From an uncultured Bradymonadales bacterium (GTDB lineage: Bacteria > Myxococcota_A > Bradymonadia > JAFGEP01), in contig CAZDBH010000003.1 in assembly GCA_964503485.1 (NCBI GenBank), positions 678-64,677 on the forward strand: a DNA stretch of 64,000 bases. Direction: 5' to 3'. Positions 3,716 to 29,619 of this stretch are shown in pieces. A model generated the notes under the pieces. It did no database searches, was not told the origin of the DNA, and saw only the letters and a program-made list of their open reading frames with translations. Position 1 is the stretch's first letter. Each line of letters starts with the position of its first letter. Position numbers and translations under genes: made by a program.

Positions 3716-3784
3716 CCTTCCGGTATGACTGATTCGGTGCCATAATGCTTGAACGACTTCAGCCAAGCGGTCGGTAGGAAACGA

Positions 3785-4471
3785 ATGGTTCAGTTCAATC
3801 TGAAAAAGCGCGAAGTTGCAATCAAGATCGTTTACTACGGCCCGCCGTTGAGCGGCAAAACCACGAACCTGCAAGCGCTTTTCGGAGAAGCCGACAAAAT
3901 GTCTCGTGGCCGGCTGGTCACTCTCGAGACACGCGACGACAGAACGATCTACTTCGACATGTTGCCGGTTGTCCTGTCCTCTCGCTCCGGCCATCGTCTG
4001 ACCTTCAAGCTCTACACAGTACCCGGGCAGCCGGTGCACAATGCGACCCGTCGAGTCGTGCTGCGGGGAGTGGATGGGGTTGCGTTTATTGCCAGCAGCG
4101 AGCGCAATGAGCTCGAGAACAACACACTGTCGTGGTCGAACCTATTGGAGAACCTCGAGGCCAATAACCTGAAAATTCAGGACGTCCCGGCGGTCATCCA
4201 GTTCAATAAACAAGACCTGCCAGACGTCCTTACGGCCGCCGAAATGAAGGCCGTGGAACGTTATTCCGGTGTACCGACCTTCGGAGCCACTGTCATTCGC
4301 GGAGAGGGGGCGTACGAAACCCTCAATGGGCTGCTGTTGCGGCTCTGGGATCAACTCTGTGAACGGCAGAACCTCGACAAGCGGCTCGGCTTGACCAAAG
4401 AAGAATTCGCTTCACACGTCAAAAAAGTCTTTGGAAAATCGTTAAATCCCTATGGACGACCTGGGTTCTGA
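3785..4471 (+). CDS. mglA: MglA-family Ras-like small GTPase (paralogue of the mutual gliding-motility protein A).
   Basis: IKIVYYGPPLSGKTTNLQ is the P-loop. RDDRTIYFD carries the intrinsic Arg finger and YTVPGQ the catalytic Gln. NKQDL is the G4 box. It aligns along its length to M. xanthus MglA. A start at 3749 is also possible. No Roadblock/LC7 (MglB) gene is adjacent, so it may be a paralogue rather than the true mglA. Confidence 0.7.
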   Translation: MVQFNLKKREVAIKIVYYGPPLSGKTTNLQALFGEADKMSRGRLVTLETRDDRTIYFDMLPVVLSSRSGHRLTFKLYTVPGQPVHNATRRVVLRGVDGVAFIASSERNELENNTLSWSNLLENLEANNLKIQDVPAVIQFNKQDLPDVLTAAEMKAVERYSGVPTFGATVIRGEGAYETLNGLLLRLWDQLCERQNLDKRLGLTKEEFASHVKKVFGKSLNPYGRPGF

Positions 4472-5828
4472 AATAAGCGTCTCCCTCGCGGAAGTCGTTC
4501 ACAAAGACCGCGAGCTCTTTCAAGAGGTTTGCCAGAGCTATGTCGATCTGTATCGAGTAGCGGTGAAACTTCTCGACAACCAGGGTAGCCGACTGATGGA
4601 CATCCCCAGTCGCGCCGAGCTCTGCCAGTATATCTATGGCTTCCAGACCTGCCGGCTGGGATGTGTTCGCACGGTAAACGCGATCCGATTCCACGAACCG
4701 GCCTTTCAAACAGTGGAACAATCCGTCTGTTTCAGCGGCGCAGAGTACCGAATCGTCCCAATCCACTATGCTACTGACGTAGTTGGCAAGGTCGTCTTCG
4801 GACCGTTTCTGCCGACCACTGTCACGGGCCCTCCAGCGCACTTCTTGGCCATGGATCCGGGTCTGGACGCACGAGCCGCATGGGAAAAAACCGTGCGCTT
4901 CCGAAAGATGAGCCCCACTCTCGCCGAAAAGGTAGCTCGAAACCTGGCGACCGTGATCGAGGTGATGTCGTTTGTCGGTTTCAAGGGGCAGATGACAACC
5001 GATATGCACGTCGAATCGATAACCGAGGCCTACGCGGAGCTCGAAGCGAAGAACAAAGCACTCGAAGCATCCGTTCATACCCTTCAAGGCCTCAACGAAG
5101 AACGCTCGACCTTCCTCGCGAGAATCAGCGATCAGGTCAAGAAGCCGCTCACTAATCTCATCGGATATGCAGAAATGTTGGCCGAAGGAATCGGCGGCGA
5201 CGTTACCGAGGATCAGACCGAGTTTCTCGGGACGATGATCGCCCAAGGCGAACTGATTCTCGGTCTTGCTGAAACGATGGATGAGTTGTCCCTGATCGAG
5301 CGAGGTCAGATCAACATCGCCCCCCATTCGGCGTCGATCGAAGAGCTGCTCATGTCGGTCTTGGACTTTGGGCAGAAGCAAGGCGAGCTACACGACGTCG
5401 AGGTCGAGATTCTCCCAGCCGATCCAGACCTGCCAAAGCTGTGGGTCGACGAAGACAGAATCCGCTCGATTCTGCTGAGAATCATCGACAACGCTGTTAA
5501 GTTCACCCCCGCTGGCGGTCGAGTTGTGATTTCGGCCTTTGGGGAGGACGACATAACCGATGGCGATCCTGTGCCACCCGGCTTCGTCGCATTAGCTGTA
5601 ACCGACAGCGGAATCGGCGTGTCCCCGGCCTATCACGACCAGCTCTTTCACCCGTTCTACAGTGTTCACGGCGCCGAGTCCGCATACACCGGAACGGGCG
5701 TTGGTCTCACGATTGCGGCCGCCTATGCCGAGGCACACGGCGGCAAGATACTCGTGCAGAGCAAGCCAAACGCCGGCTCGACGTTTAGCATCCTCCTGCC
5801 AACCAGTCCGTCGAGTTCACTTCCTTAG
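4452..5828 (+). CDS. Sensor histidine kinase with a Cys-containing N-terminal sensor domain (PocR-like?), HisKA and HATPase_c domains.
   Basis: The H-box is ERSTFLARISDQVKKPL. The N box (IIDNAVKF), G1 (DSGIGV) and G2 (GTGVGL) motifs are present. It overlaps the MglA-like gene by 20 nt. The N-terminal 190 aa are soluble and carry four Cys residues. Confidence 0.8.
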   Translation: MDDLGSEISVSLAEVVHKDRELFQEVCQSYVDLYRVAVKLLDNQGSRLMDIPSRAELCQYIYGFQTCRLGCVRTVNAIRFHEPAFQTVEQSVCFSGAEYRIVPIHYATDVVGKVVFGPFLPTTVTGPPAHFLAMDPGLDARAAWEKTVRFRKMSPTLAEKVARNLATVIEVMSFVGFKGQMTTDMHVESITEAYAELEAKNKALEASVHTLQGLNEERSTFLARISDQVKKPLTNLIGYAEMLAEGIGGDVTEDQTEFLGTMIAQGELILGLAETMDELSLIERGQINIAPHSASIEELLMSVLDFGQKQGELHDVEVEILPADPDLPKLWVDEDRIRSILLRIIDNAVKFTPAGGRVVISAFGEDDITDGDPVPPGFVALAVTDSGIGVSPAYHDQLFHPFYSVHGAESAYTGTGVGLTIAAAYAEAHGGKILVQSKPNAGSTFSILLPTSPSSSLP

Positions 5829-6818: not shown

Positions 6819-7766
6819 ATGGAGTACGGACTTCAGAGCGAAGGGTTTGCGTCAAGCTACGCCGCTGACGTAGCCCCGAAGTGGGACAAGGAACTCTGCG
6901 ACGCACTTCGGCCCTACCTGGCCCACGTCGACAATGAGAATGCGCTTGCGGCCGAGTGCCGCGCTGGGCAAATCTGCGACCTCATTTTGGAGTCCGTCGG
7001 AACCGGGCGGGTAATGGCTGTCGATCCGTCCCGAGAGATGCTCGATGTGGCGCGGGGCCGTCTCGCCGAACGGGACGGGCAGTCTGTGTTCTTCAACTGC
7101 CAGTCGACCACCAATCTCAGCTACGCAGGTGGCGTCTTTGGACGTGCAGTATGTCTGGCCGCACCGCTCACCAGGAAGAAGGCCAATCTCGTCGTGGGCG
7201 AACTCAATCGGGTTGTGAAGCCCGGTGGTCTCCTCGCGATTGCGGCACCGGTTTCGGGAACCGACGTGTTTCTCGACCTCCTAGTCGAATCGATCTGCGC
7301 CTGCGCGGCCCTCAACGAGAGATTGCTCGAGGACGTCGAGGCTTTTCGGAACGATCTGGTCAGCGCGGAATCACTGTCTGATTCCCTCGAGCGCCGGGGA
7401 GCCACGGTTGTGGCCAGCGGTCAAATCGACGCCGTGGCTCAGATCAATTATCCTCAAGCGCTCTACTTCACTCCCCTTCTGCAACACCTTTTGCTGCCAC
7501 ATTGGTTGGACGTGGTTTCAGTTCCAGCGCAGCGGAAAGAGCTGATGCAGGACGTCATTAAGAGGGTGCAGCACTACTTCGAGGGTATGGACCTGTCGAT
7601 CACAATCAGCGGCGCTTGGATCGTCGCCAGTACATCCGAAGAGCGACACGAAGAGATCTACGAGATCGAGGACCTCGATGTCGCCGAGGTCGAAGAGGCT
7701 GTGAGCGTCACCTCGAGAGACCTCTTCGATCCGCTGGATGACGACGCACACGAGCCGCCGCTGTGA
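6819..7766 (+). CDS. Class I SAM-dependent methyltransferase-like protein.
   Basis: ILESVGTGRVMAVDPS resembles motif I and VKPGGLL resembles the post-I/motif II region. The call is weak. Confidence 0.45.
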   Translation: MEYGLQSEGFASSYAADVAPKWDKELCDALRPYLAHVDNENALAAECRAGQICDLILESVGTGRVMAVDPSREMLDVARGRLAERDGQSVFFNCQSTTNLSYAGGVFGRAVCLAAPLTRKKANLVVGELNRVVKPGGLLAIAAPVSGTDVFLDLLVESICACAALNERLLEDVEAFRNDLVSAESLSDSLERRGATVVASGQIDAVAQINYPQALYFTPLLQHLLLPHWLDVVSVPAQRKELMQDVIKRVQHYFEGMDLSITISGAWIVASTSEERHEEIYEIEDLDVAEVEEAVSVTSRDLFDPLDDDAHEPPL

Positions 7767-10700
7767 TACCGAACGACCCAGCCAATCTCCGGCCGGGGTC
7801 TCTATTTGCAGGCCGGTATGTCATTCAGTTGAGAGTGGCCACCGGACCCCTATCAGTTGTCCATTTCGCCAGACGTACCGACACAGGACAGCGGGTCGCG
7901 ATCAAATGCCTGCGGGTTGACCGTATAGCCGACGCGGACGTCAGTCGCAGCTTCCGTTCCGAGTGTTTGGTGGCCTCTGGATTACGACATCGAAACACAG
8001 TCCAACTACTCGACTATGGTGCCACCGGTGGCATCCCGTATCTGGTTATGGAAGCCGTGCTGGGATCCAATCTGGGCGGTGTGCTCAAGACGGGAGGCAA
8101 ACTTTCCCCACAACGCGTGACACGCATCGTCAAACAGGTTCTGGATTCGCTCGAAGAGGCGCACAGCCTCGGAGTCCTACACCGCGACATCAAGCCAACC
8201 AACATCATGTTGGCTCAACACCCGTTCGAGAAGGACTTCGTCAAAGTCCTCGACTTCGGGACCGCCACGACGGTGGGCGCTGCAGCCTCGACCCCCTTGG
8301 CAGGGACACCGCTCTACATGGCTCCCGAGCTTACTCAGGGGACGTCGGCGAGCATCGGAAGCGACTTGTACTCGCTGGGCTGCGTGGCATACGAGCTCTC
8401 GGTTGGCAGACCGCCGTTCGAGGGTGAGTCGGCGATCGATACAATGATGATGCACGCCAAGGAGCCTTTTCCTTCGCTGCCCAACGACCTCCACTCACCC
8501 GCTCTGGTGGAGTTCATACAGTGGACTACTCAGAAGGACCCGACTTCGCGTTTGAGGGACGCTCGGACGGCCAGATTGACCCTGACGGGTGAGCGCCAGT
8601 TTGCAACCTTGCCACCGCCCCTATTCCATCGTTTTGGGCAGGTACCCGCAGTCCCGCTCAAAGCCGGAGAGACCTTGAGAGCGGTCGAGGTGGAGAGACG
8701 TGATGACTCCAACCGGCTGTTACGCGCGGTGGTTGAGGCCGTCGACTCGCCTCTTCCGACCTTTGTGTTCCTGACCGGATTGTCGGGTTCGGGGGTAAGT
8801 AGATTGGCAAGCGACGTGCTGGCTCTGGACGCTATCCAGAGACGAGTCGAGGTGAAGTCCGCTCGCTGTTGGCCGTCGAAAACATCCGAAGGCAAGCCAC
8901 TGGCGAATGCCTTCGCAGAGCCAGACGACGGCGATCCGCTTTCGAGGCTCGAAATGGCCACACGGCTGTGGGATAGGGCAAAGGAAAGGCCCTCGCTCCT
9001 GTTCTTGGACGAGATTCATCTTGCTGACGAGCTTACGCTCGGAATACTGGAACGCTGGCTCCATAAGGGTCGGGGAATCCCCCAGAATCTCACAGTGGTG
9101 GGAACGGTTCGTCTGCACGATCCGCGTACCAATCGCGGCTTCGATCAGATCTGCGGCCGCCTCGTGGGCCGATGGGCCCAACATCTGAGAGTCATCTCGA
9201 TCGAGAACCCGCCGGTATCGCAGGTGGGTGAGCTCGTATCCGAGACGTTCGGACCGTCAGACCAAGCAAAGCAGATCCTGTGGAATCTGACCCGTGGCCA
9301 TCTGCATTACCTGACCCAACTCTACCATCACTGCCACCAAGACCGCTCAGCGCGAATGGCGGTGGCGACCATCACCAAAACCACCGGCGCCAGAGGTCCA
9401 GAACTGCGAATGCCGACCAGTTTTCGCGATCTCGTAATCCGGCGGCTTGCGTCTACTCGAACCGAATCGCCGGGCCTCCACTATACGTTGCTCGCGCTCG
9501 CGGTGCTGGGCGGGAGCGCACGTGTAACCAAGCTCGACGAGATGGCAAAGGCTCTGCCCGACCAAGAGGAGGGCCTCTTCAGCCTCGATGATGTCGCCGA
9601 CTACGTTTCGCTCGGTTGCTCGCTCGGCTTACTAGTGGATGAGAGCACTGGTCACGAAACGCGCGTCCGGCTTGCCAACGACGCACTGTTCGAGGTCATC
9701 GTCTCGTCGATGATCGACAGTGGCCAATGGCAGACCGCCAACCTGAAAGCGGCACAAACTGCGCTGAGTACACAGCGAGGTGCATTCGGCCAACATTCTA
9801 CCTCGGCGTTTCACGCTCTCATCGGCGGAAACGTCGCAGAAGGATGCCGGCAGTTGATTCAAGCCTCTCACACCGCCCGTTCTGGCGGAGATCTGGTGCA
9901 CGCCGGCCAGCTTCTGGAGCTGGCCCACTTGCGTGCCGAGGCGGCAGAACTCTCGCCGCAAGAACGTCTACAGATCATGTTGCTGCTGGCCGAAATCAAA
10001 CGAACCTCGGGGGTCTGGGGAGCAGCCCAAGACTTGTTTGAACGAGCCCTCGAGTTCCCGCATACCGAGGACGACTCGGAACGCCGGTTGCGTTTGCGGC
10101 TCGATCTCGCCGACGTGATGATCTCCCGGGGCGACTTAGAGAACGCGAGGGAGCAACTGAGTTCCGCGCTGGGTGCAGCTGCGGAGCTGGAGCGATTCGA
10201 CCTCGAGGGGGAAACCTCTTTCCACCTCGGCAAGCTCGAAGCAGAGGCCGGCAATCCGGAACAAGCCCAGAGCCTATTTCAGCACGCTAGATTGCTGTTG
10301 AGTCAACAGGGCGATCGTGACTGGCTTCTGAAGATCGATGTCGCTCTCGCAAACTCACTCTTGGAGAGTGGGCAGAACACAGCCGCTCAGCAGTCCCTTT
10401 CACGGGTCGACGAGTCCGCGATCGCCCAATTGGGTGGCACTGTCGAGGCGTCGTTCTTTCACATCAGAGCGAAGTTGGCGTTGCGGTCAAAGGACTACTC
10501 CAAGGCCAAAGAGGACCTCCGAGCGGCGGTCAAGTTGAGGCAGGCCGCGGGGGAAGATCGACAACTCGGTCGATTGATCATGGACCTGGCCTGGACGTAC
10601 TTTCGAGAGGGCAGCTATCAGCGTGCTGCCCGGAGCGCAGCCAGCGCTGCCCGGAACTTTGCGATCGTCGACTATGCCTCCGGAGAATCGGCCGCTCGAG

Positions 10701-11347
10701 CGCTGCTGATCCGCGCCTCCTACCAGAGCAGGAACTTCAATGATGTGATCGACGGGGCGGAGGAGGCCTTGAGCTTGAGTGAATTCGTGGACAACACGGT
10801 CGAGTGGGCCTCAACCTCCCATTTCGCGTGTCGTGCTGCGCTCCGTGTGGGGTCCAGCGAGGAAGCCCTGAGGCATGCTCAGAACCTCAATGGTCATGTC
10901 GAGCAACACGGTCTGGAAAAACTCCGAGCTGCCGCGACACTCGATCTGGCTGACAGCCTGTTTTGCAATGGTAGATTCGAGGAAGCTCGCGGTCAGGTCG
11001 AGGCCGAATCGGCCGCGTTAGTTGCCCAGCCGTGGGCGACCGAAGCCGCCTTCCTGAGATTGCGCCTGGCCATTCTGGACCGACCGGCCGATATCGAAGC
11101 AGCTGCCGGCTTGGTCCTGTCACAACTCGACTCAGTCGACCCGTATGCCGATCTCGAGGGAAGGCTGCTCTTGGCCTTGTCAGCGGAACTCGGTTGGGCT
11201 GGGTGTCCGGGTGACAACCCGACTCGCCTCTTCGACCTATCAAAGCAGCCAGGCTCAGATCCAGCGGCAACACTCGACTATCTCTTGGGGTCTCATGCTT
11301 CAGATCAGGTCGAACACGCCCGACAGGCGGTGTTGAGGAAACTCTAG
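7763..11347 (+). CDS. Ser/Thr protein kinase fused to a STAND-type NTPase domain and C-terminal TPR-like repeats.
   Basis: Kinase motifs are VAIKCL, HRDIKPTNIM, DFG and APE. A central P-loop-like segment (FLTGLSGSGVSRL) and a Walker B (LLFLDEIH) follow. The C-terminal about 500 aa are alpha-helical repeats. The start overlaps the upstream stop. Confidence 0.8.
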   Translation: MIPNDPANLRPGSLFAGRYVIQLRVATGPLSVVHFARRTDTGQRVAIKCLRVDRIADADVSRSFRSECLVASGLRHRNTVQLLDYGATGGIPYLVMEAVLGSNLGGVLKTGGKLSPQRVTRIVKQVLDSLEEAHSLGVLHRDIKPTNIMLAQHPFEKDFVKVLDFGTATTVGAAASTPLAGTPLYMAPELTQGTSASIGSDLYSLGCVAYELSVGRPPFEGESAIDTMMMHAKEPFPSLPNDLHSPALVEFIQWTTQKDPTSRLRDARTARLTLTGERQFATLPPPLFHRFGQVPAVPLKAGETLRAVEVERRDDSNRLLRAVVEAVDSPLPTFVFLTGLSGSGVSRLASDVLALDAIQRRVEVKSARCWPSKTSEGKPLANAFAEPDDGDPLSRLEMATRLWDRAKERPSLLFLDEIHLADELTLGILERWLHKGRGIPQNLTVVGTVRLHDPRTNRGFDQICGRLVGRWAQHLRVISIENPPVSQVGELVSETFGPSDQAKQILWNLTRGHLHYLTQLYHHCHQDRSARMAVATITKTTGARGPELRMPTSFRDLVIRRLASTRTESPGLHYTLLALAVLGGSARVTKLDEMAKALPDQEEGLFSLDDVADYVSLGCSLGLLVDESTGHETRVRLANDALFEVIVSSMIDSGQWQTANLKAAQTALSTQRGAFGQHSTSAFHALIGGNVAEGCRQLIQASHTARSGGDLVHAGQLLELAHLRAEAAELSPQERLQIMLLLAEIKRTSGVWGAAQDLFERALEFPHTEDDSERRLRLRLDLADVMISRGDLENAREQLSSALGAAAELERFDLEGETSFHLGKLEAEAGNPEQAQSLFQHARLLLSQQGDRDWLLKIDVALANSLLESGQNTAAQQSLSRVDESAIAQLGGTVEASFFHIRAKLALRSKDYSKAKEDLRAAVKLRQAAGEDRQLGRLIMDLAWTYFREGSYQRAARSAASAARNFAIVDYASGESAARALLIRASYQSRNFNDVIDGAEEALSLSEFVDNTVEWASTSHFACRAALRVGSSEEALRHAQNLNGHVEQHGLEKLRAAATLDLADSLFCNGRFEEARGQVEAESAALVAQPWATEAAFLRLRLAILDRPADIEAAAGLVLSQLDSVDPYADLEGRLLLALSAELGWAGCPGDNPTRLFDLSKQPGSDPAATLDYLLGSHASDQVEHARQAVLRKL

Positions 11348-13898: not shown

Positions 13899-14342
13899 AT
13901 GAAGCGCTTTCTTAGCGACGTATTGGCCCAGAAGGGGGGTACCGTTTACAGCGTGGCTCCTGATGCCACGGCTCTTGAGGCCGTTCACCTCATGAACGAA
14001 AAAGGCATCGGGGCGGTCCTCGTATTAGTCGATGGCAAAACTGTCGGCATCTTCTCCGAACGAGATGTACTTCGCCGGGTCCTGGACGACGGCTTGGATG
14101 CCGCAAAAACCGCGGTTAGCGAGGTCATGACCAAAAAAGTGGTCTCGATGCGTTCGGACAAGACAGTCAATGAGGCGATGGGCGTCATGACCGAGAAACG
14201 CTGCCGCCATCTTCCGATTATCGACGATGACGAACTGAAAGGAGTCCTCTCTGTCGGCGACCTAACGAAGTGGGTTTGTCGGGATCAGGAACATGAGATC
14301 GAGGAAATGATCGACTACATCGTGGGCCGGTATCCCGGCTAG
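13899..14342 (+). CDS. CBS-domain pair protein.
   Basis: Two CBS repeats are present (GAVLVLVDGKTVGIFSERDVLRRV and RHLPIIDDDELKGVLSVGDL). A good RBS (GGAGG) precedes the start. 147 aa. Confidence 0.75.
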   Translation: MKRFLSDVLAQKGGTVYSVAPDATALEAVHLMNEKGIGAVLVLVDGKTVGIFSERDVLRRVLDDGLDAAKTAVSEVMTKKVVSMRSDKTVNEAMGVMTEKRCRHLPIIDDDELKGVLSVGDLTKWVCRDQEHEIEEMIDYIVGRYPG

Positions 14343-17215
14343 TCGTGGTGAATCGATTCAGGCACTGGCGTTGTCGAGTGGACCGAGTCCTCCTCGTCGC
14401 TGACTTCTGTCTGAGAGACCTCGTCGATCAGAATCGAGTCTCCCTCCACGCCAGCCAGCAAGCATGTGGTCACCGGTTCGATAACACGCTCAGAGAACAA
14501 TCGGCGAAGGTCGCGAGCGTCAGTGAGCTTGAGGGCGTCTGCCTTGATGAGCTCCTCGGTTCGCGACTCGATATCAAGCTGCAGACCGTAGCCCTCTAGG
14601 AGACTGGCGCGAAATCGGGCCAGCTGTTGCTCGAAAAGTGCGCCGATTAAAGCACCGCCGGATGACGCGGCCGATTCGAACAAGATGGGGTGGTGAGCGT
14701 AACACTTCAGTTTAGCGCCCAGGCGCTCGTCATGAGCCTCCAGAAGGCGCGAGGCTCTTGCCCTCGTGTCCTTCACCGGATCGGCGCTTCCAAATCCGAT
14801 CCGCTTCAGTTCCTCTACGCCAGTGTTGACGGTCAGAACGAATACAGCGTGACTCGCGTCGGCGACCATACCCCGAGTATCCCTGATCTTGCCCTCTTCG
14901 AAGAGCGCAAAAAACCGGTCCTGAACTTGAGGATGGGCGAGATCGAAGTCTTCGAGTAGTACGACCGAAGTCGGCCGTCGCCTCAAGGGCGTCACGAGCG
15001 CGTCTTCGTCCTGATAACCTACGTAGCCTGGGGGCGAACCGATCAAACGACTGATCGCGTGCGCCTCCTGGAAATCGGTCATGTTGAGACGAATCAAGGC
15101 TCGAGTATCAGCGTAGATCTCCTTCGCGAGCGCTTTGGCCAGGTCGGTCTTGCCTACAGCCGGTGGCCCGACGAAGACGAAGACTGCTTGGGGACCGCTG
15201 CTCATTCCAGAGCGGAGGCGGCCCGACACCAGTGCGCGAGCCGATTGCTGGACTGCAGCCTCCTGTCCAATCACGTAGGGTTTGAGGCGAGATGCTAAAC
15301 CAACCCACCAACCCTGCTCGCCGTGAACGAGACGGTCGAGAGGCAGTCCCGTCTTCAGGGCGATTTGGGCGGCCACCGACTCCCGCGAAACCACGGGCAG
15401 CGTCGCCTGTGGCGCACCGCTATCGTTGTTCGAAGCCTCGTCCTGTGGCTGGTCGTCGACACTCTCGGCAGCCTTGATGGATTCAGCGATCGCCGCGTCC
15501 ATCAGCAGTTTCTTGGCCTTATCGGGCAGCCGTTGTTCTGGCAGGAAGCGGACAGAGAGCTCCAACGCCGCCACGACCGCTTCGTCAGAGACGCGAACTT
15601 CGTAGTCCTTTTCGTAGGCACTGACCAAACTGTGGAGGATCGATGCGCACAGCTCCTCTTCGGGCTCTGGGACCTCAATCCGCTCGAAGCGGCGCTTCAA
15701 GGCTGGATCTTGCTCGATCCAGCGGTGATATTCTGTCTCTGTGGTCGCTGCGACCACCGCAACATCGCCGTTAGCTAGCGCTGCTTTGAAGTGATTTGGA
15801 ACCTCGGCGGGCTGCCCGCTTCCACTCCTTGGCGAGAAAACCGCGTGGGCTTCGTCGATGAACAGGATGACTTTGTTGGTCGCTTCGAGAAGCAACGCTT
15901 TGATTCGCGCCTCGAGATCACCCCTGTAGCTCGTTCCGCCGATCAGGCTGGCGCCGTTGATCTCGACAACGCGGCAGCCGAGCAACTTGGCGGGGACGTT
16001 CCCTTGTTCGATGCGCGTTGCGAGCGCTGAGGCAAGGGCCGTCTTACCGACTCCAGCCTCTCCGGTCAGCAGTGGGTTGCGCTGTTCCGGTCGCAGTAGG
16101 ACGTTGATCATCCGTTGCAGCTCACGGTCTCGGCCGAGGATTTTCGGGAGGCGCCCGTTGGCAGCCTCGGCCGTCAGGTCCCGCCCCAGTAGGTCCAGCA
16201 TCGGCGTGGGCGACAGCGAACCGGCCAAATCGTCTCCGCGGTCCTGTTCGGCCAGAGCAGCACCCTCGAGCACTTTTGGATCGCCGAGCAAACTCCGGAT
16301 TTCGGATTCGAGACCTAGCGCTCGGATCAACTCGAGGCTGGAACCACCGTCTGCTAGAAAGCCCTCAACCAGATTGGCCTCGCCGACTCGACCCTTGAGG
16401 CCCGCCTTGTCCGATGCATAGGTCAGCATCCGAACCAGTCGAGGGGTCATCGTTCGGCGAGAGAGCAAGAACACGGGCTGTGCTGGAAAGCGAACCCCGA
16501 CAATCCGCAGGAGTTCCTCTCTCAGTTTTCGCGGATCGACGCCTGATGCTTCCGATGCCCGCCACAGGATGCTCTCTCTGAGGCTGCACAAAACTGCCAC
16601 GACGTGGGGAGTACCCAAGAAGGGCATTCCGTTCTTGGCCGCGAGTTGCATGGCGTCTTGCATGACTCGCCAGGTCTGCTCGATAAACGCAGTGGGTCGA
16701 AGCACGCCATCGGTATCGAAGAGGGTGTCGCTTCCCGGTGCAGCCAGCTGCCGAATCGCCCATCGTACTGATGCTGATTCCTGTACCTCGGCTCGCCAGC
16801 CGACGACTCGGGCAAGATCGTTCTCGGAGACCCGGTCCCAGCCAGCTTCGCGAGCCCAATTGAGAGCGTCGTCGAGAATACCGATGAATCCGAGGGAAAA
16901 GTTGTCGACCAGAAGCCTTGGCTCACCGTCCGTCTCGCGCTCGACGCGTCGTGCCAGTTCCTCGATGTCTGCAAGAATGTTCTGAGTCGTACCGGAACCT
17001 CGGGAAGCCCGAGCTAGCTGCTCGCCTAGTTCGTCGTGTCCGCTGCGGAGAAGGACGACAATCAAGTCGATCGGAAGGAACAGAGAGCGACCTACCTCGC
17101 CGAGCCAATCGCGAGTGTTTTCCAAGGCCTTCCAGGCCTTGGCGTCAAACAAATGACGTTGTAGATAACCTTCGCCGTCGTACAAACCCGACGACGTAGA
17201 CTGCCCTTTCATCAA
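14339..17215 (-). CDS. Clp/Hsp100-family double-AAA+ ATPase (ClpV/ClpA-like, short middle domain) with an extended duplicated N-terminal region.
   Basis: AAA1 has Walker A (GEAGVGKTA) and Walker B (ILFIDEAH). AAA2 has VGPPAVGKTDLAK, VVLLEDFD and a sensor-2 region. There is no long ClpB-type coiled-coil M-domain. About 360 aa precede AAA1. Confidence 0.8.
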   Translation of the reverse strand: MMKGQSTSSGLYDGEGYLQRHLFDAKAWKALENTRDWLGEVGRSLFLPIDLIVVLLRSGHDELGEQLARASRGSGTTQNILADIEELARRVERETDGEPRLLVDNFSLGFIGILDDALNWAREAGWDRVSENDLARVVGWRAEVQESASVRWAIRQLAAPGSDTLFDTDGVLRPTAFIEQTWRVMQDAMQLAAKNGMPFLGTPHVVAVLCSLRESILWRASEASGVDPRKLREELLRIVGVRFPAQPVFLLSRRTMTPRLVRMLTYASDKAGLKGRVGEANLVEGFLADGGSSLELIRALGLESEIRSLLGDPKVLEGAALAEQDRGDDLAGSLSPTPMLDLLGRDLTAEAANGRLPKILGRDRELQRMINVLLRPEQRNPLLTGEAGVGKTALASALATRIEQGNVPAKLLGCRVVEINGASLIGGTSYRGDLEARIKALLLEATNKVILFIDEAHAVFSPRSGSGQPAEVPNHFKAALANGDVAVVAATTETEYHRWIEQDPALKRRFERIEVPEPEEELCASILHSLVSAYEKDYEVRVSDEAVVAALELSVRFLPEQRLPDKAKKLLMDAAIAESIKAAESVDDQPQDEASNNDSGAPQATLPVVSRESVAAQIALKTGLPLDRLVHGEQGWWVGLASRLKPYVIGQEAAVQQSARALVSGRLRSGMSSGPQAVFVFVGPPAVGKTDLAKALAKEIYADTRALIRLNMTDFQEAHAISRLIGSPPGYVGYQDEDALVTPLRRRPTSVVLLEDFDLAHPQVQDRFFALFEEGKIRDTRGMVADASHAVFVLTVNTGVEELKRIGFGSADPVKDTRARASRLLEAHDERLGAKLKCYAHHPILFESAASSGGALIGALFEQQLARFRASLLEGYGLQLDIESRTEELIKADALKLTDARDLRRLFSERVIEPVTTCLLAGVEGDSILIDEVSQTEVSDEEDSVHSTTPVPESIHHD

Positions 17216-17372
17216 TCCTCCCTAATGGCCCCGCCAACCGGTGCGTCGCCAAGTATAGCAGGCTTGGCGGGTTCGGTAGATGGTCACTTTTGCAAAATCG
17301 GCAGTTTCAGCGGAAAAACAAATCTTTGTTACTTTACAACAACGCTTTAGGTGGCCAATACTCCCCGAAGCC

Positions 17373-18014
17373 ATGGCAAGAATTTGTCCCGAATGCGGTG
17401 TTACGAGCCCCGGAGAAGTCGACTTCTGCGAGCTCTGCGGTCACGACCTACGTGGGAGTGCGACCCCATCCGGCGGCCACCCCCACAGGATGCCGAGCGG
17501 CCTACTGCGTGTGCCTGGCGAGGCCGATAGCGGAACTGACCAGGGTTCCCGGCCGATCCAACACACTGAAGATCTCCCGGTGGTTCAGGTACAACCCGTC
17601 AACAAGGCGGCGGTCGGCGAAGCAGCTGCGCGGGTCTCTCTGTCAGGCGACTTCACCGGTCTCGAGGGCTCAATTGTCGGGCGAGTGAAACTCGTCGTCG
17701 AGCAGGGGAAGATCATTGGCGAGCAGTATCTACTGTCTGAGAGCCTCATGCTTATTGGACGCGTCGACCCCGAAGCCAATTTCTACCCCGATATCGATCT
17801 GAGCGGACAGGATAACGAATACGTGCATCGTCAACATGCCCGGATTCAATTCATCGACGGGGGCGCCAAAATCTCCGTGGAGCACATCGGCGGTCACAAC
17901 CAGACCCTTGTGAACAACTCGCCTCTCGAGGTCGGAGAACTCGTCGAACTCCGAGTCGGCGACAGACTCCGGGTCGGCCGAGTCGTCATGCGACTCGTGT
18001 GGTTTGAGTCGTGA
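17373..18014 (+). CDS. FHA-domain protein with an N-terminal zinc ribbon.
   Basis: MARICPECG..CELCGH forms a CxxC..CxxC ribbon. The C-terminal FHA signature is LIGR...D..L....VHRQHARI...G...V.H.GG.N.T.VN. Confidence 0.7.
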   Translation: MARICPECGVTSPGEVDFCELCGHDLRGSATPSGGHPHRMPSGLLRVPGEADSGTDQGSRPIQHTEDLPVVQVQPVNKAAVGEAAARVSLSGDFTGLEGSIVGRVKLVVEQGKIIGEQYLLSESLMLIGRVDPEANFYPDIDLSGQDNEYVHRQHARIQFIDGGAKISVEHIGGHNQTLVNNSPLEVGELVELRVGDRLRVGRVVMRLVWFES

Positions 18015-18058: not shown

Positions 18059-20038
18059 TTGTGTGGGAGCGAACCGATTAACTTGCTACGTACCACTTTA
18101 TTTTTCCTATTTGGCCTCGCGCTAGTTCAGGGCACGGCCTGCACCAAGACCAAAAAGGTCATTGATGTCCGCTCCTCGTGCGCCGTGTGCCACTCTCCCA
18201 GACCGGCGACGGGAGGAGAACCTCATGGCATCGTCGATGCCCATCCGGGGCACGAGCTGTCATGCGTCGATTGCCATGGGGGAGACTCAACCTCCTATTC
18301 GCAAGACACAGCTCATGTTCAGCCCCCCGAAGAGGGAATGCAGCTGCGATTCCTCACCGCGGGCGAGCTGGACGAACTGGACCCGGAATACCTCAGATTC
18401 GTGAATCCGGGTGACTTGCGTGTCGCACCACAAGCATGCGGGCAATCTGACTGCCACGGTGATATCGTCGACCGTGTGTCGCGCTCTGTCATGACCCATA
18501 CCTCCGGTGAGGTCACAGTGGCCCGCTATCGCGCCGGAGTGCAGGACACACCCCTCGCAGAGGTCGGCGCCCAGGGACTGACCGATCCAGATTATGATCC
18601 AAATGTCCTGGGTTCGTCGGAGAGCATCACGCGATTTGATCCTCGTGTGGACGAAACACCCATCGAAGAACGCACCTACGGTCAGTTTCAGGATGACTAC
18701 ATGGTGAAATCCTGCTTCCGTTGCCACATCTCGGATTTCGGCGAGAACAGGTTTCCTGGTGACTACCGATCGTCCGGTTGCTCTGCCTGTCATATGTTGT
18801 ATGCAGACAACGGTGTGTCGGAGTCGGCAGATCCCACTATCAGCCGCGACCATATCCCGCGACCCATTACGCATGAAATGACCTCTGAGATAACGAGTGA
18901 GCAATGCATGCATTGCCACTATCGCGGCGCGAGAATCGGCCCCAGTTATTTTGGATATCGCGAAGCCGGAGGCGCCGGGTTTAACCCAGAGAATCCCGAA
19001 GTGCTGGGAATTGGGCTGCACGGGCATGATCCGGCCTTCTACTTAACCGACGAGGACACGACGAACTTCGTCGACGAAACACCGCCAGATGTTCATCAGC
19101 TGGGTGGTATGACCTGCATCGATTGCCATACCGAGCTCGAGGTTCACGGCGACGGCCACCTCTATGCAGATACACAGCTCGCGACCGAGATTCGGTGTGA
19201 GAGCTGTCATGGCTCAATCGACGAAGAAACCGACGGTCAGACAGCACTCGGCAATCCTGTGTCGCGGTTGACTCGCTCCGAGTCTGGCACCTGGACACTT
19301 GGCTCGGCAGACGGTCAGTCGACGTGGGAAGTGACGCAAATCGCCAACTCTGTCGACCCGAATAGCCCCACCTATTCCAGCCGAGCAGACTATGCGATGG
19401 GACGAACAGAAGACGGTTTCAGTCATTCAGATGGAATCAGCTGTGAAACCTGTCACGCAGGGTGGTTGCCGAGCTGCTACGGGTGCCATGTCACCATGAA
19501 CTACGACGGCACCGGGCGCGTTCAGAGTACTGGCCAGGTCACTCCGGGACGGCCCTCGGGCGACCGTTGGTGGGTGGTCACAGACGATCTTGTTCTCATG
19601 CACAAACCGGACGGCATGATCGGCCTGTCGATGCCCTCTGAGCGCTTCTTTCTGACGGTCCTAGACGGCTCTGATGAACCAATATTGGACCGCGTCGCTC
19701 GACCCTTTGAGGGGGAGGAGGGGATGGGCTTTGGCCAACGCACGGTTCAACCTCACACGATTCAGGAAAGGGCTGCCTTCAGCCAGTGCCCGCGCTGCCA
19801 CATCCTAGACGACCGCTCCAATGAGGATCAGTTGAGAGTCACCGTTGGTTTCGGTTCCGACCGATTCGTAGTGGAGGACGGCGCTGGCGTCAGCTACCGC
19901 CTCGATGCCATTCAGGATGAAGAGGGAAATCCGCTCGTCACGGTCGGCCACCCTGGCCAAGAGGAAAGCCGACCACTCGACATCGACCTAGCCCACTGGC
20001 TGCTCAACACGTCAATCGAAGATGAGGGGGCTGAGTGA
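18059..20038 (+). CDS. Multihaem c-type cytochrome (about 10-11 haem sites), probable lipoprotein.
   Basis: CxxCH motifs found: CAVCH, CVDCH, CFRCH, CSACH, CMHCH, CIDCH, CESCH, CETCH, CYGCH, CPRCH. There is one CX4CH-like site (CGQSDCH). The N-terminal signal has GTAC. Confidence 0.8.
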   Translation: MCGSEPINLLRTTLFFLFGLALVQGTACTKTKKVIDVRSSCAVCHSPRPATGGEPHGIVDAHPGHELSCVDCHGGDSTSYSQDTAHVQPPEEGMQLRFLTAGELDELDPEYLRFVNPGDLRVAPQACGQSDCHGDIVDRVSRSVMTHTSGEVTVARYRAGVQDTPLAEVGAQGLTDPDYDPNVLGSSESITRFDPRVDETPIEERTYGQFQDDYMVKSCFRCHISDFGENRFPGDYRSSGCSACHMLYADNGVSESADPTISRDHIPRPITHEMTSEITSEQCMHCHYRGARIGPSYFGYREAGGAGFNPENPEVLGIGLHGHDPAFYLTDEDTTNFVDETPPDVHQLGGMTCIDCHTELEVHGDGHLYADTQLATEIRCESCHGSIDEETDGQTALGNPVSRLTRSESGTWTLGSADGQSTWEVTQIANSVDPNSPTYSSRADYAMGRTEDGFSHSDGISCETCHAGWLPSCYGCHVTMNYDGTGRVQSTGQVTPGRPSGDRWWVVTDDLVLMHKPDGMIGLSMPSERFFLTVLDGSDEPILDRVARPFEGEEGMGFGQRTVQPHTIQERAAFSQCPRCHILDDRSNEDQLRVTVGFGSDRFVVEDGAGVSYRLDAIQDEEGNPLVTVGHPGQEESRPLDIDLAHWLLNTSIEDEGAE

Positions 20039-20601
20039 TTTCTGGTACGATTAACGCGATGAACACGAAACGCTATCAGCTACTTGCCATCGTTGGACTG
20101 GTTGCTCTCAGCTCGACCTTCACTGCATGTATCGAAGAAATTCTACTGATCGACCCGGCCGTCACGTTCTCACAATCGAACGAGCCGCCCGTCACTGGTG
20201 AGATTTCGATCACACTCGGAATGTACCAGGAACAGTTTTTTGACGAGCTGAACGAAGGCGATGACCTCCCCATCATCTTCGGGCTACAGGGCGGGACGTG
20301 GGTAATGCCTGCGATCCGATGCACCGGCATGGCAGTCTCGGTCGAAGTAACCGCTTCCGTGGTGACCGAAAACGGCGAGGACGTCGGAATACTTCCTGCT
20401 GATGGAATGCGACTGTTGCCTCAGCCGGACGGTTCGCTTCACATCGAGGCGATTCCAATTCCCATCGGGCATCCTGGCACCGCTTCGAACGAACCAATCG
20501 ACGACCTATATGGCCAAAATGCGATCCTCACGATATCGGTGGTCGATTCGGGTGGCCGGCGCGCTGAGGCCCATATTGACGTCGTGCTCACCAGCGGCTA
20601 A
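20035..20601 (+). CDS. Lipoprotein of unknown function, co-operonic with the multihaem cytochrome.
   Basis: ATGA overlap with the cytochrome stop. Lipobox LSSTFTAC. 188 aa. Confidence 0.5.
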   Translation: MISGTINAMNTKRYQLLAIVGLVALSSTFTACIEEILLIDPAVTFSQSNEPPVTGEISITLGMYQEQFFDELNEGDDLPIIFGLQGGTWVMPAIRCTGMAVSVEVTASVVTENGEDVGILPADGMRLLPQPDGSLHIEAIPIPIGHPGTASNEPIDDLYGQNAILTISVVDSGGRRAEAHIDVVLTSG

Positions 20602-27537: not shown

Positions 27538-28800
27538 GTGATGATCGTACAATGCCCAGGCTGCAACTCTCGCTACCGAGTTAGGGAAGAAAAACTGCCC
27601 TCAGGAGGCGGGAACATCGAGTGCCCGAGTTGTCACTCTATCTTCCCAGCTGCCCCTGCTAGCCGAGTCGCAGCGCCGAGAAACACCCTTCCCGGATCGG
27701 GCCCCAAGGCCACGGCCACCAATTCGCCTCCTCCGCTGCCCGAAGGCGCTGAGGCGGGTGCGACCGTTCTCATCGAACCAGGGCAAAGCGAAGGTTCGAC
27801 GACCTGGAAGATTCGGACTCCGGTCGGCCTTGTGTATGATTTTCCGAACTTGGCCGCCCTCAAGAACTGGCTGTCTACCCGTGACAGCGTCGCCGATATG
27901 GTGGCCAGCACCGACGAAGGCACCACCTGGCAAAACTTGACCGCTTTTGACCAGCTCAAGGGCTCGTTACCCAAAGGGGGTAGGGCCGCCAAGGGCGCCG
28001 AACCACCCGCTCTCTCCAAAAAGGAAGGGCTGGCAGAGGCCATGGACGCCGTTCTCAGCAATCGTAAGAGCACTGAGATGCCTGGGTTCCAGCCGCCTCC
28101 CAAAGCGGTTCAAAAGCGGCCAGACCCGAAGACTATGCTCGAAAAACCCCGTAGGGCGAGCGCACCAGCCCGTCCCGCCTCGAGGGGTCCCGGCCAAAAG
28201 AACCGGCCGGCCACAAAACCAACTTTCCAGAGAATTCGGACCGCTCCCGCTCAAGAAGGCGGGGGTTTCGGGGCCATGCTGGGCATCCTTATCTTCGGTG
28301 CCGTGGTCTTCGGATTCACAGCCCAACTGGCTGGAGTCGACGTACTCGGTAAGATTGGAATCACCAATTCCGACGCCCCAGAGGTTGGAGACGACCCAGC
28401 ACGCATTGCGCCGGCTCCGTCAGAAGCCCTGCCGCCGATCGATGAGGTCGAATGGGTCGTCGTAGATGACCCGTATGTTCCGAATCAGGTCAGTCCCCAG
28501 CGCCCGCTCGGCAACGCAACTGAGTCGATAGGACTTATCCAACAGGGTGTCAGTCCCACCGATGTGCGTGTTGCGGGTCTCATACAGGAGGCGCAGCGCG
28601 AGATTCAGCAGGAGAACTACGACACCGCCGCCCAACTGCTCGGAAGCGCCTCCCATCGCGCGCCGACAAACCCAGAACCCGTCTGCCTCCTGGCTGGCGT
28701 AAACCGGGCTCAGGGCCGAATCGTAGAGGCGCAGACTCTTGAAGAGCGCTGTACGGCGTTGCGCGCAGCTCAGTCGCAAACCGCTGCTCAACAGAACTAG
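27538..28800 (+). CDS. MJ0042-type zinc-ribbon protein with a DUF4339-like domain, a Pro-rich linker, a TM helix and a TPR-like tail.
   Basis: MMIVQCPGCNSRYRV...IECPSCHS forms the ribbon. WKIRTPVGLVYDFPNLAALKNWL...WQNLTAFDQLKGSL is the DUF4339-like segment. The TM helix is LGILIFGAVVFGF. Confidence 0.6.
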   Translation: MMIVQCPGCNSRYRVREEKLPSGGGNIECPSCHSIFPAAPASRVAAPRNTLPGSGPKATATNSPPPLPEGAEAGATVLIEPGQSEGSTTWKIRTPVGLVYDFPNLAALKNWLSTRDSVADMVASTDEGTTWQNLTAFDQLKGSLPKGGRAAKGAEPPALSKKEGLAEAMDAVLSNRKSTEMPGFQPPPKAVQKRPDPKTMLEKPRRASAPARPASRGPGQKNRPATKPTFQRIRTAPAQEGGGFGAMLGILIFGAVVFGFTAQLAGVDVLGKIGITNSDAPEVGDDPARIAPAPSEALPPIDEVEWVVVDDPYVPNQVSPQRPLGNATESIGLIQQGVSPTDVRVAGLIQEAQREIQQENYDTAAQLLGSASHRAPTNPEPVCLLAGVNRAQGRIVEAQTLEERCTALRAAQSQTAAQQN

Positions 28801-28815
28801 CTGGGAGACCAACGG

Positions 28816-29619
28816 TTGACCGAGGCCCCGCAAATCCGAATCGCCTGCCCGGAATGTGAGAGGAAGTACAAGATACCCGCCTCGTCGCTCACCGGGAAAC
28901 CGCGCACGCTCAAATGCTCGAGTTGTGGGCACACCTTTCCCCTGCGAGCCCCCAAGAGAGTCGGGCGAGAACCCTCGGGCTTCAGGGTGAAAGATCCAGA
29001 CGGACTCCAGGTCAGAAGCGTGCCCTCTCTCGATACGATTCGGCGACTGATTATCGAGGGCCAATTGTCGGGCGACCACCAACTGGCCAAGGCAGCAGAC
29101 GGACCTTGGCAGCGGCTCGGCGATATCGAGCAACTCAAAGCCTCGTTGCGAATGGCAAAGTCGGGCGAATCGAAGGCCGCTCAGCCTCAAGACAGTCCCC
29201 CTGAAAGTGAAGCGGGCGGAAAGGCGGTCGCAGAGGGCGAAAGTGAGCCAGTGCCGGTCCCTGCCGTCCTGTCAGAGCTGGCGGCGACTCCAGAGCCCGA
29301 AACAACCCCAATACCAGACAACAGCGACGAAGACCCCCAAACGGAACCTGTCGAAGAATGTGCCGGCAGTTCGGACGATGTGAGCTCGTCGGAAGCGGGC
29401 CTAAGTGATGTGACGGTCCCTACCGCGAAGGGTGGACAACCGGTCGAACCCGCGCCTCAGCCCCAAGCGGCACCTCAGCCCGAAGCCTCGCCCCCAAGCA
29501 CTCAACCACCGGCACAGGTGGCTAAGAAGGAGGGTGGCTCTCCCATCGCCATCCTGAGTATACTCGCTGCAGTCGCTGCGATTGTGGTCTTTCTGCTGTT
29601 CTATTTCGAGGTAATCTAA
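28816..29619 (+). CDS. MJ0042-type zinc-ribbon protein with a DUF4339-like domain and a C-terminal TM anchor (paralogue of 27538-28800).
   Basis: IRIACPECERKYKI...LKCSSCGH forms the ribbon. GFRVKDPDGLQVRSVPSLDTIRRLIIEGQL...WQRLGDIEQLKASL is the DUF4339-like segment. The TM helix is ILSILAAVAAIVVFLLFY. Confidence 0.6.
   Translation: MTEAPQIRIACPECERKYKIPASSLTGKPRTLKCSSCGHTFPLRAPKRVGREPSGFRVKDPDGLQVRSVPSLDTIRRLIIEGQLSGDHQLAKAADGPWQRLGDIEQLKASLRMAKSGESKAAQPQDSPPESEAGGKAVAEGESEPVPVPAVLSELAATPEPETTPIPDNSDEDPQTEPVEECAGSSDDVSSSEAGLSDVTVPTAKGGQPVEPAPQPQAAPQPEASPPSTQPPAQVAKKEGGSPIAILSILAAVAAIVVFLLFYFEVI

Follow-up and report, generated by a model that had tools for sequence, protein, structure and literature searches.

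A ClpA-like Hsp100 ATPase of Bradymonadia with a Duplicated N-Domain and a Putative ClpP-Docking Loop

A 64,000-nucleotide stretch of DNA from an uncultured Bradymonadales bacterium (assembly GCA_964503485.1, contig CAZDBH010000003.1), which we refer to at its full length as the window, contains a minus-strand open reading frame (ORF) at 14339..17215 that encodes a double AAA+ ATPase of the Hsp100/Clp type. The start codon is likely the ATG at 17212, six bases past AGGGAGGA, which places the clp gene at 14339..17212 (minus strand, stop codon 14339-14341) and gives a 957-aa product with the layout N1-N2-D1-linker-D2-acidic tail. It is probable, at roughly 0.7 by our estimate, that this protein represents a Bradymonadia-specific class-I Hsp100/Clp subfamily that is ClpA-like, coupled to ClpP, and equipped with a duplicated N-domain, that the divergent gene beside it for a zinc-ribbon/FHA protein is secondary, and that the locus has no link to the type VI secretion system (T6SS). 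An earlier sequence-only reading of the same DNA had described a ClpV/ClpA-like ATPase and had compared its FHA and kinase neighbors with the post-translational control of type VI secretion.

The description given in that reading, a double AAA+ Hsp100 with a divergent zinc-ribbon/FHA gene beside it and a kinase nearby, is borne out throughout. Pfam models place AAA at residues 381-512, AAA_lid_9 at 519-584, and AAA_2 at 674-805, together with one weak Clp_N match at 187-239, and a search of Protein Data Bank (PDB) sequences returns ClpB, ClpC, ClpE, and ClpA with E values of 1e-84 to 1e-101. A full-length AlphaFold model has a mean predicted local distance difference test score (pLDDT) of 84.9 and resolves D1 at residues 338-587 (15452..16201, minus strand) and D2 at 608-930 (14423..15391, minus strand), with the linker at 588-607 and the tail disordered; the C-terminal extension is acidic. 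D1 carries the Walker A motif GEAGVGKT (384-391), the Walker B motif ILFIDEAH (449-456), and the pore loop SYRGD (428-432), while D2 carries GPPAVGKT (682-689), the pore loop GSPPGYVGY (725-733), and the sensor-2 residues DAR (898-900). Across 120 homologues, no variation is seen in the Walker A and B motifs of D1 or in either pore loop. The protein shows all the marks of a class-I Hsp100/Clp member: a Clp N-domain and two AAA+ modules, each with Walker A and B motifs and with a Tyr in its pore loop.

The linker between the two modules (15392..15451, minus strand) is short, acidic, and variable, and has no coiled-coil M-domain. ClpB and ClpC align to the protein as two pieces in which their M-domains are skipped, such that ClpB 400-521 and ClpC 400-473 correspond to merely 22-34 residues, and the alignment to ClpA is continuous (residues 198-810 against ClpA 24-620). 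Because there is no middle domain, the topology is that of ClpA, which agrees with the ClpA-type middle region expected by the sequence-only reading. When the full-length model was searched with Foldseek, the best matches were ClpC chains from ClpC/ClpP complexes, followed by ClpC1, ClpB, and ClpA. The NCBIfam equivalog models for TssH (TIGR03345, 442 bits against a cutoff of 885), ClpB (TIGR03346, 410 against 1232), ClpA (TIGR02639, 376 against 993; NF008263, 305 against 1350), and ClpG and ClpK (NF033607 and NF033606, 336 and 334 against 1900) all score below their cutoffs. The protein is a class-I Hsp100 of ClpA topology that lies outside every named subfamily.

What sets the protein apart is the region ahead of D1. 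Since D1 begins at residue ~338-344, this region is long, as had been noticed earlier, with a length of ~340 rather than ~360 residues. Residue ~176 aligns with residue ~6 of ClpC and ClpB; therefore, residues ~161-311 (N2) are the ordinary N-domain, and the ~160 residues before them (N1) are extra. N2 (aa 161-311; 16280..16732, minus strand) is a canonical Clp N-domain that aligns to residues 6-144 of the ClpC N-domain and has GTPH at 200-203 where ClpC has GTEH. N1 (aa 1-160; 16733..17212, minus strand) is highly divergent and contains the motif WRAExxESASVRWA (aa 139-152; nt 16757-16798, minus strand), which is invariant in the family. A hidden Markov model (HMM) of N1 built from 34 sequences gave a single chance match and nothing meaningful against PDB sequences. 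Pfam models miss N1 as well, and it took a fold search to recognize the domain. The relation of N1 to N2 is nonetheless seen at several levels. BLASTP aligns the two with 28% identity over 96 aa (E 6e-5), hhalign places their family profiles in register across both half-repeats, and a hairpin, L[FY]DxxGxL[RQ]xxxF, opens both N1 and N2 and is present at both starts in the family consensus. When N1 is modeled on its own with AlphaFold, the pLDDT is 87, and Hsp100 N-domains dominate the Foldseek matches of this model; the top 50 include the N-domains of ClpC, ClpC1, ClpB, ClpA, ClpD, Hsp104, and SMAX1, at TM scores of 0.5-0.6 and 11-17% identity. Searched against 1.84 billion representative proteins, the N1 profile gives 28 matches, of which 8 are strong (E 1e-30 or better). 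The approximately full-length proteins among these strong matches (930-966 aa) share the present architecture, and the others are short fragments; the weaker matches that were scanned fall on Clp_N-carrying proteins, namely CHAT/EAD7-linked proteins and other Clp-like ATPases. The N-terminus is thus two tandem Clp N-domains that arose by internal duplication, with N1 strongly diverged yet highly conserved within the family. The duplicated recognition module that the sequence-only reading had suggested is therefore recovered by hhalign, Foldseek, and BLASTP, and the outcome it had named as telling against that idea, a ClpC-type N-domain followed by a UVR linker, is not what the region shows.

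We also considered N2 as a reader of phospho-arginine. In ClpC, the phospho-arginine pocket is defined by Glu32 (PMC12583610). The equivalent residue here is Pro202, within the invariant GTPH of N2, and the equivalent of ClpC Glu106 in the second repeat is not conserved, as judged from a manual alignment only. Because an invariant Pro occupies the Glu32 position, phospho-arginine reading in the manner of ClpC is unlikely for N2, and we rejected this candidate.

The case for a ClpP partner comes from D2. The tripeptide IGF (aa 805-807; 14792..14800, minus strand; translation checked) lies in a flexible loop that follows the sensor-1 strand, and we regard it as a putative ClpP-docking loop. Across the 120 homologues, I is present in 115, G in 120, and F in 120, and the 10-15 positions on either side are hypervariable and rich in gaps. 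In pairwise HMMER alignments, IGF falls on the VGF of Bacillus subtilis ClpC and on the VGF of ClpE; ClpB aligns across the stretch and has no such tripeptide. The loop has low pLDDT in the full-length model, as expected of a flexible docking loop. In ClpX, ClpA, and ClpC, such a hydrophobic-Gly-hydrophobic tripeptide is the established ClpP-docking element, and ClpV is not known to have one in D2. The IGF loop is the main reason why we favor a ClpP partner over a ClpV- or ClpB-like remodeler, and, from its sequence, the window protein is most likely a ClpP-coupled, ClpA-like unfoldase. On this reading, the invariant IGF loop of D2 would attach the hexamer to ClpP, and substrates would be threaded into the ClpP peptidase as they are by ClpA and ClpC. 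With its N-domain doubled, each hexamer would offer substrates or adaptors twelve docking sites, and the invariant WRAE..ESASVRWA surface of N1 may act as a lineage-specific receptor.

Several observations weigh against this picture. There is no clpP gene within the window, and we infer ClpP binding from one tripeptide. D2 is itself unusual. Its Walker B motif reads VVLLEDFD (aa 750-757; nt 14942-14965, minus strand; translation checked) where hhhhDE is usual, and this LLED in place of LLDE holds across the family, with E in 93/120 homologues and D in 111/120. Sensor-1 varies, R and K occupy the presumed Arg-finger position in 95 and 14 of the 120 homologues, respectively, with Lys in the window protein, and the C-terminal half of D2 is poorly conserved. 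Given the ED Walker B, the variable sensor-1, and the Lys in place of the Arg finger, the D2 motor may differ in behavior from those of ClpA and ClpC; the family-wide LLED probably changes ATP hydrolysis in the D2 ring and may slow it. Finally, the pairing of clp with the divergent FHA gene survives rearrangements in six of the seven genomes of a narrow sub-clade, a persistence that hints at some functional or regulatory link.

The family has a narrow range. The 120 homologues cover 86-100% of the protein (most of them 95% or more) at 49-78% identity, and the nearest relatives of the window protein, at 66-78% identity, come from uncultured Bradymonadales. A scan for the N1 motif over 185,579 species genomes led to 43 confirmed loci. 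Most of these are named Bradymonadia, Bradymonadales, Bradymonadaceae, Lujinxingia, Lujinxingiaceae, Persicimonas, Microvenator, Myxococcota, or Myxococcales, and the remainder are metagenome-assembled genomes with generic names (bacterium, proteobacterium, delta proteobacterium); the named matches of the protein search agree with this range. The family is restricted to Bradymonadia/Myxococcota, the Bradymonadia being predatory bacteria, and its full architecture is conserved there. Database entries currently label its members ClpC, ClpA, or AAA family ATPase, and a literature search found nothing relevant on Bradymonadales together with Clp or on Clp-N/CHAT.

Among the known Hsp100 proteins, the family shares with ClpA two AAA+ rings, the absence of a middle domain, the continuous alignment, and a hydrophobic-Gly-hydrophobic loop at the end of the conserved D2 core, where the ClpP-loop tripeptide of ClpA is IGL. 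It differs from ClpA in having two N-domains rather than one, an N2 that is closer to the N-domains of ClpC and ClpB, and ED in the D2 Walker B. The single N-domain of ClpA binds ClpS; no clpS gene was seen in the window. ClpC, ClpC1, and ClpE give the best overall matches in sequence and structure, with N2 falling on the ClpC N-domain and IGF on the VGF ClpP loop; however, the coiled-coil M-domain that ClpC carries within its D1 small domain (400-473) has no counterpart, the phospho-arginine Glu is missing, and N1 is extra. The ClpC M-domain mediates resting-state control and MecA binding (PMC12583610), and neither can apply to the window protein because it has no M-domain. ClpB/Hsp104 differs in its long M-domain, which is absent here, and in the IGF that the window protein has.

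The layout N1-N2-D1-D2 with a C-terminal extension is shared with ClpG and ClpK, and this likeness underlies a first alternative, a ClpP-independent, stand-alone remodeler or disaggregase like ClpG or ClpL whose extra N-terminal domain would bind aggregates or clients autonomously. ClpG, too, has an extra domain ahead of its canonical N-domain (PMC10641755), and the atypical D2, the acidic C-terminal extension, and the 334-336 bits scored by the ClpG and ClpK models would all fit. These scores are, however, far under the 1900-bit cutoff, and ClpG, a stand-alone disaggregase, retains an M-domain that the window protein does not have. The N1 of ClpG is a ~46-residue Zn-coordinating module that binds aggregates via a β-strand (PMC10641755), whereas N1 here has the full Clp_N fold. 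Together with the invariant IGF at the ClpP-loop position, these differences make a stand-alone remodeler an improbable reading.

Outside the family, the N1 profile weakly matches (E 1e-10 to 1e-4) the Clp_N units of uncharacterized proteins, namely multi-Clp_N CHAT/EAD7 proteins and other Clp ATPases with a double N-domain. P0185, P0186, and P0188 carry the same LFDxxGxLR-prefixed type of Clp_N, and P0185 and P0186 also have ~380 residues before AAA1. Their type differs from the present family in an ATPase core of ~28% identity and a normal DE Walker B in D2, and some are fused to CHAT proteases. No hydrophobic-Gly-Phe/Leu tripeptide occurs in the C-terminal part of P0186 or P0188, and the VGF of P0185, at residue 727, precedes its D2 Walker B and hence lies away from the ClpP-loop position. 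In sequence, N1 comes closest outside the family to P0178, P0180, P0181, and P0183, large proteins with a CHAT protease domain (one also with EAD7) and Clp_N; P0180 and P0181 additionally carry a complete ClpA/B-like double AAA+ motor. These four look like conflict-system proteins.

We turn now to the gene on the other side of the clp start. The zinc-ribbon/FHA gene runs from the ATG at 17373 (17373..18014, plus strand; 213 aa), with an alternative upstream ATG at 17280 that would give 244 aa. Three orthologues have the internal Met (MARICPECG, nt 17373) as their first residue, so the product is probably the 213-aa form and the divergent spacer is 160 bp (17213..17372); the sequence-only reading, correct as to the divergent protein and its zinc ribbon, had given 157 bp. 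The CxxC...CxxC zinc ribbon (nt 17385-17441, plus strand; aa 36-54 of the 244-aa ORF) is followed by the motif HPHRMPSG (17478-17501, plus strand) and by an FHA domain (~17754-17978, plus strand; aa 159-233; PF00498, 36.8 bits against a cutoff of 20.7). Most of the nearest relatives of the window FHA protein have the form HPHR(V/M)P(S/T)G behind the zinc ribbon. This form is present in every close FHA protein whose contig was examined, all of which adjoin Clp, and distant homologues have ILPGLT in its place; the motif may be a docking peptide. Phosphopeptide binding by canonical FHA domains uses Gly-Arg, Ser-x-x-His, and Asn, with the Ser contacting the phosphate. The present domain retains the GR, His, and Asn, but in YVHRQHA (17820-17840) a His replaces the canonical Ser (SxxH to HRxH), as it does in all 48 homologues save representative P0121, which has Gln.

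We find the Clp and FHA genes in divergent arrangement in the window and at loci L053, L054, L020/L057, and L055/L056, and the pairing is kept in 6/7 genomes of the narrow sub-clade (Clp identity 66-78%). It outlasts rearrangement of its flanks, which takes the form of a cytochrome pair inserted behind the FHA gene of the window and of an inversion of pyrB and mnmG in L055. In L003/L004, it is broken by two intervening genes. Outside the clade, no such FHA gene lies within 10 kb in any of ~40 loci, though N1, N2, and IGF are conserved there; this absence was scored with a family-specific FHA HMM at a permissive threshold, which unrelated FHA domains could escape. The conservation that the earlier reading expected of the FHA/AAA+ pairing thus holds within the sub-clade and fails beyond it. 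Distant FHA homologues (33-39% identity, with the same zinc ribbon and FHA layout) sit immediately upstream of a Pkinase-FGE-sulfatase gene with no Clp nearby. We note a recurrent FHA-kinase operon of this kind at L050 10001-13160, L051 10001-13421, and L052 10001-13274, in which the kinase gene, with its C-terminal FGE-sulfatase domain, overlaps the FHA stop codon. Because the distant homologues overlap a kinase gene in the absence of Clp, the FHA family is generally kinase-associated, and adjacency to clp is a feature of one shallow clade.

The kinase near the window clp was also followed. The Ser/Thr STAND kinase reported by the sequence-only reading is present as a Pkinase + AAA_16 + TPR protein (7763..11347, plus strand), ~3 kb from clp, where it is a neighbor and not a demonstrated component; tblastn with two kinase queries returns it as the sole kinase match in the window. 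Among its 120 best matches from 5.8 billion proteins, the three full-length homologues are all in the narrow clade. The kinase evolves very fast, with syntenic counterparts that are 35-39% identical where Clp is 76-78% identical. Elsewhere, the neighbors of clp are others. Outside the narrow clade, conservation extends to a UbiE-like methyltransferase directly upstream of clp and to a Pkinase-AAA_16-TPR gene in the opposite orientation, the latter adjoining Clp in ~24/45 major-clade loci. In the Bradymonas/Lujinxingia/Persicimonas clade (L001 961-10955, L006 3742-10835, and ~22 more loci), the UbiE-like methyltransferase precedes clp on the same strand, with the opposite kinase farther upstream. 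This major-clade kinase resembles the window kinase in the catalytic domain only and is missing from the 120 best homologues found for the latter, and the adjacent methyltransferases are likewise unrelated. We therefore rejected an ancestral, conserved kinase-Clp module, since the adjacent kinases are not detectably orthologous and the methyltransferases are unrelated.

These observations bear on the second alternative, in which the sub-clade would possess a remodeling or degradation module controlled by phospho-threonine, the FHA protein reading marks made by the kinase and acting on, or delivering clients to, the tandem N-domains of Clp. In its favor are the divergent adjacency kept in the window, L053, L054, L020/L057, and L055/L056 despite flank rearrangement, a Pkinase-AAA_16-TPR kinase within 2-4 kb of clp in the window, L053, and L003, the kinase linkage of the FHA family, seen in distant homologues that overlap the start of the following kinase gene, and the clade-specific HPHR(V/M)P(S/T)G, which could serve as a docking peptide. 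However, the ~40 other loci conserve N1, N2, and IGF and have no such pairing within 10 kb, L003 breaks it, L054 has no kinase, and the kinases of L020 have a different architecture. The window kinase, with its three full-length homologues, is not orthologous to the Clp-adjacent kinases of the major clade, the FHA domain lacks the canonical phosphate-binding Ser, and the members of the clade are so closely related that plain synteny accounts for much of the pairing. We consider such a module unlikely. As a general property, the FHA/kinase/AAA+ module of the sequence-only reading is not supported, full-length kinase homologues being confined to the narrow clade, and it is at best a recent, clade-local association. 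A functional link between the FHA protein and Clp within the clade is a long shot. Very doubtful is the more specific proposal that the zinc-ribbon/FHA protein is a phospho-threonine-dependent adaptor whose HPHRxPxG docks on N1 and which hands kinase-marked proteins to a Clp-ClpP protease; if this were true, the McsB/phospho-arginine/ClpC degradation-tag system would have a counterpart that works with phospho-threonine. Our preferred reading, a ClpP-coupled unfoldase, treats the FHA gene as a neighbor acquired in one sub-clade and not a defining part of the Clp system, although the two genes may share regulation.

Nothing ties the locus to type VI secretion. The resemblance that suggested it lies in a short-linker Hsp100 with an FHA protein and a Ser/Thr kinase close by, as in the T6SS threonine-phosphorylation pathway of ClpV/TssH with Fha1/TagH and PpkA, and TIGR03345 is the nominal top NCBIfam match. 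A ClpV/TssH-type T6SS ATPase or relic, with the FHA protein and kinase as a post-translational switch, can nevertheless be set aside almost completely, because its TssH score is half the cutoff, with ClpB (410) and ClpA (376) nearly equal, the TagH model (TIGR03354) gives the FHA protein 20 bits against a cutoff of 120, the ClpP-type IGF loop is present, no Tss, Hcp, or VgrG domains occur among the ~45 ORFs scanned in the window (the absence of TssB/C, Hcp, and VgrG had been noted before), and bradymonabacteria are reported in a study of comparative genomics to encode no T6SS, having lost it relative to Myxococcia and Polyangia (PMC11509652).

The remaining features of the locus are of a more general kind. 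At its 3′ end, clp is convergent with a CBS-pair gene (13899..14342, plus strand), the two overlapping by 4 bp at their stop codons. Within the Clp/FHA spacer, an extended -10-like TGcTATACT (~17252-17260, minus strand) lies upstream of clp and a sigma-70-like site (17333-17362, plus strand) upstream of the FHA start, both being consensus matches only; a TATAAT-like box in this spacer is common to L053 and L054. The surroundings are housekeeping genes, including the dnaK 3′ end, a thiL-like gene, mnmG, pyrB, and ftsY. The 3′ end of the Hsp70/DnaK gene (28-762) is that of a second major chaperone gene, 13.6 kb from clp. Between the FHA gene and mnmG, 18059-20601 encodes a multihaem c-type cytochrome whose ExtM-like match is weak (145 bits, the cutoff being 800), along with a 188-aa protein of unknown family. 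In L053, L054, and L020, mnmG directly abuts the FHA gene without this cytochrome pair, and in L003 the pair is on the opposite side of Clp; given these differences in position, it is a mobile two-gene block. At 3749-5828, the gene for an Arf-like small GTPase directly precedes that for a PocR-sensor histidine kinase, and a syntenic block of the PocR-sensor histidine kinase, an AIRS-family gene, a methyltransferase, and the STAND kinase is common to the window and L053. Two adjoining proteins at 27538-29619 each have an N-terminal MJ0042-type zinc ribbon (Zn_ribbon_4), one with TPR repeats and the other with DUF7836.

For annotation, our results mean that members of this family, labeled ClpC, ClpA, or generic AAA ATPase, should not be taken as ClpV. 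The family is a lineage-specific variant of the ClpA/ClpC-type unfoldase and opens no new kind of system. In the D2 Walker B, a motif commonly held to be immutable, the family shows a conserved natural variation from DE to ED. Each subunit carries two full Clp N-domains, the first of which has diverged beyond sequence recognition and is yet invariant within one bacterial class. N-domains set which proteins Hsp100 machines unfold, and the duplication seen here shows one route by which this specificity can be rewired. With Bradymonas sediminis and Persicimonas caeni in culture, the family offers a tractable case for the role of a second N-domain.

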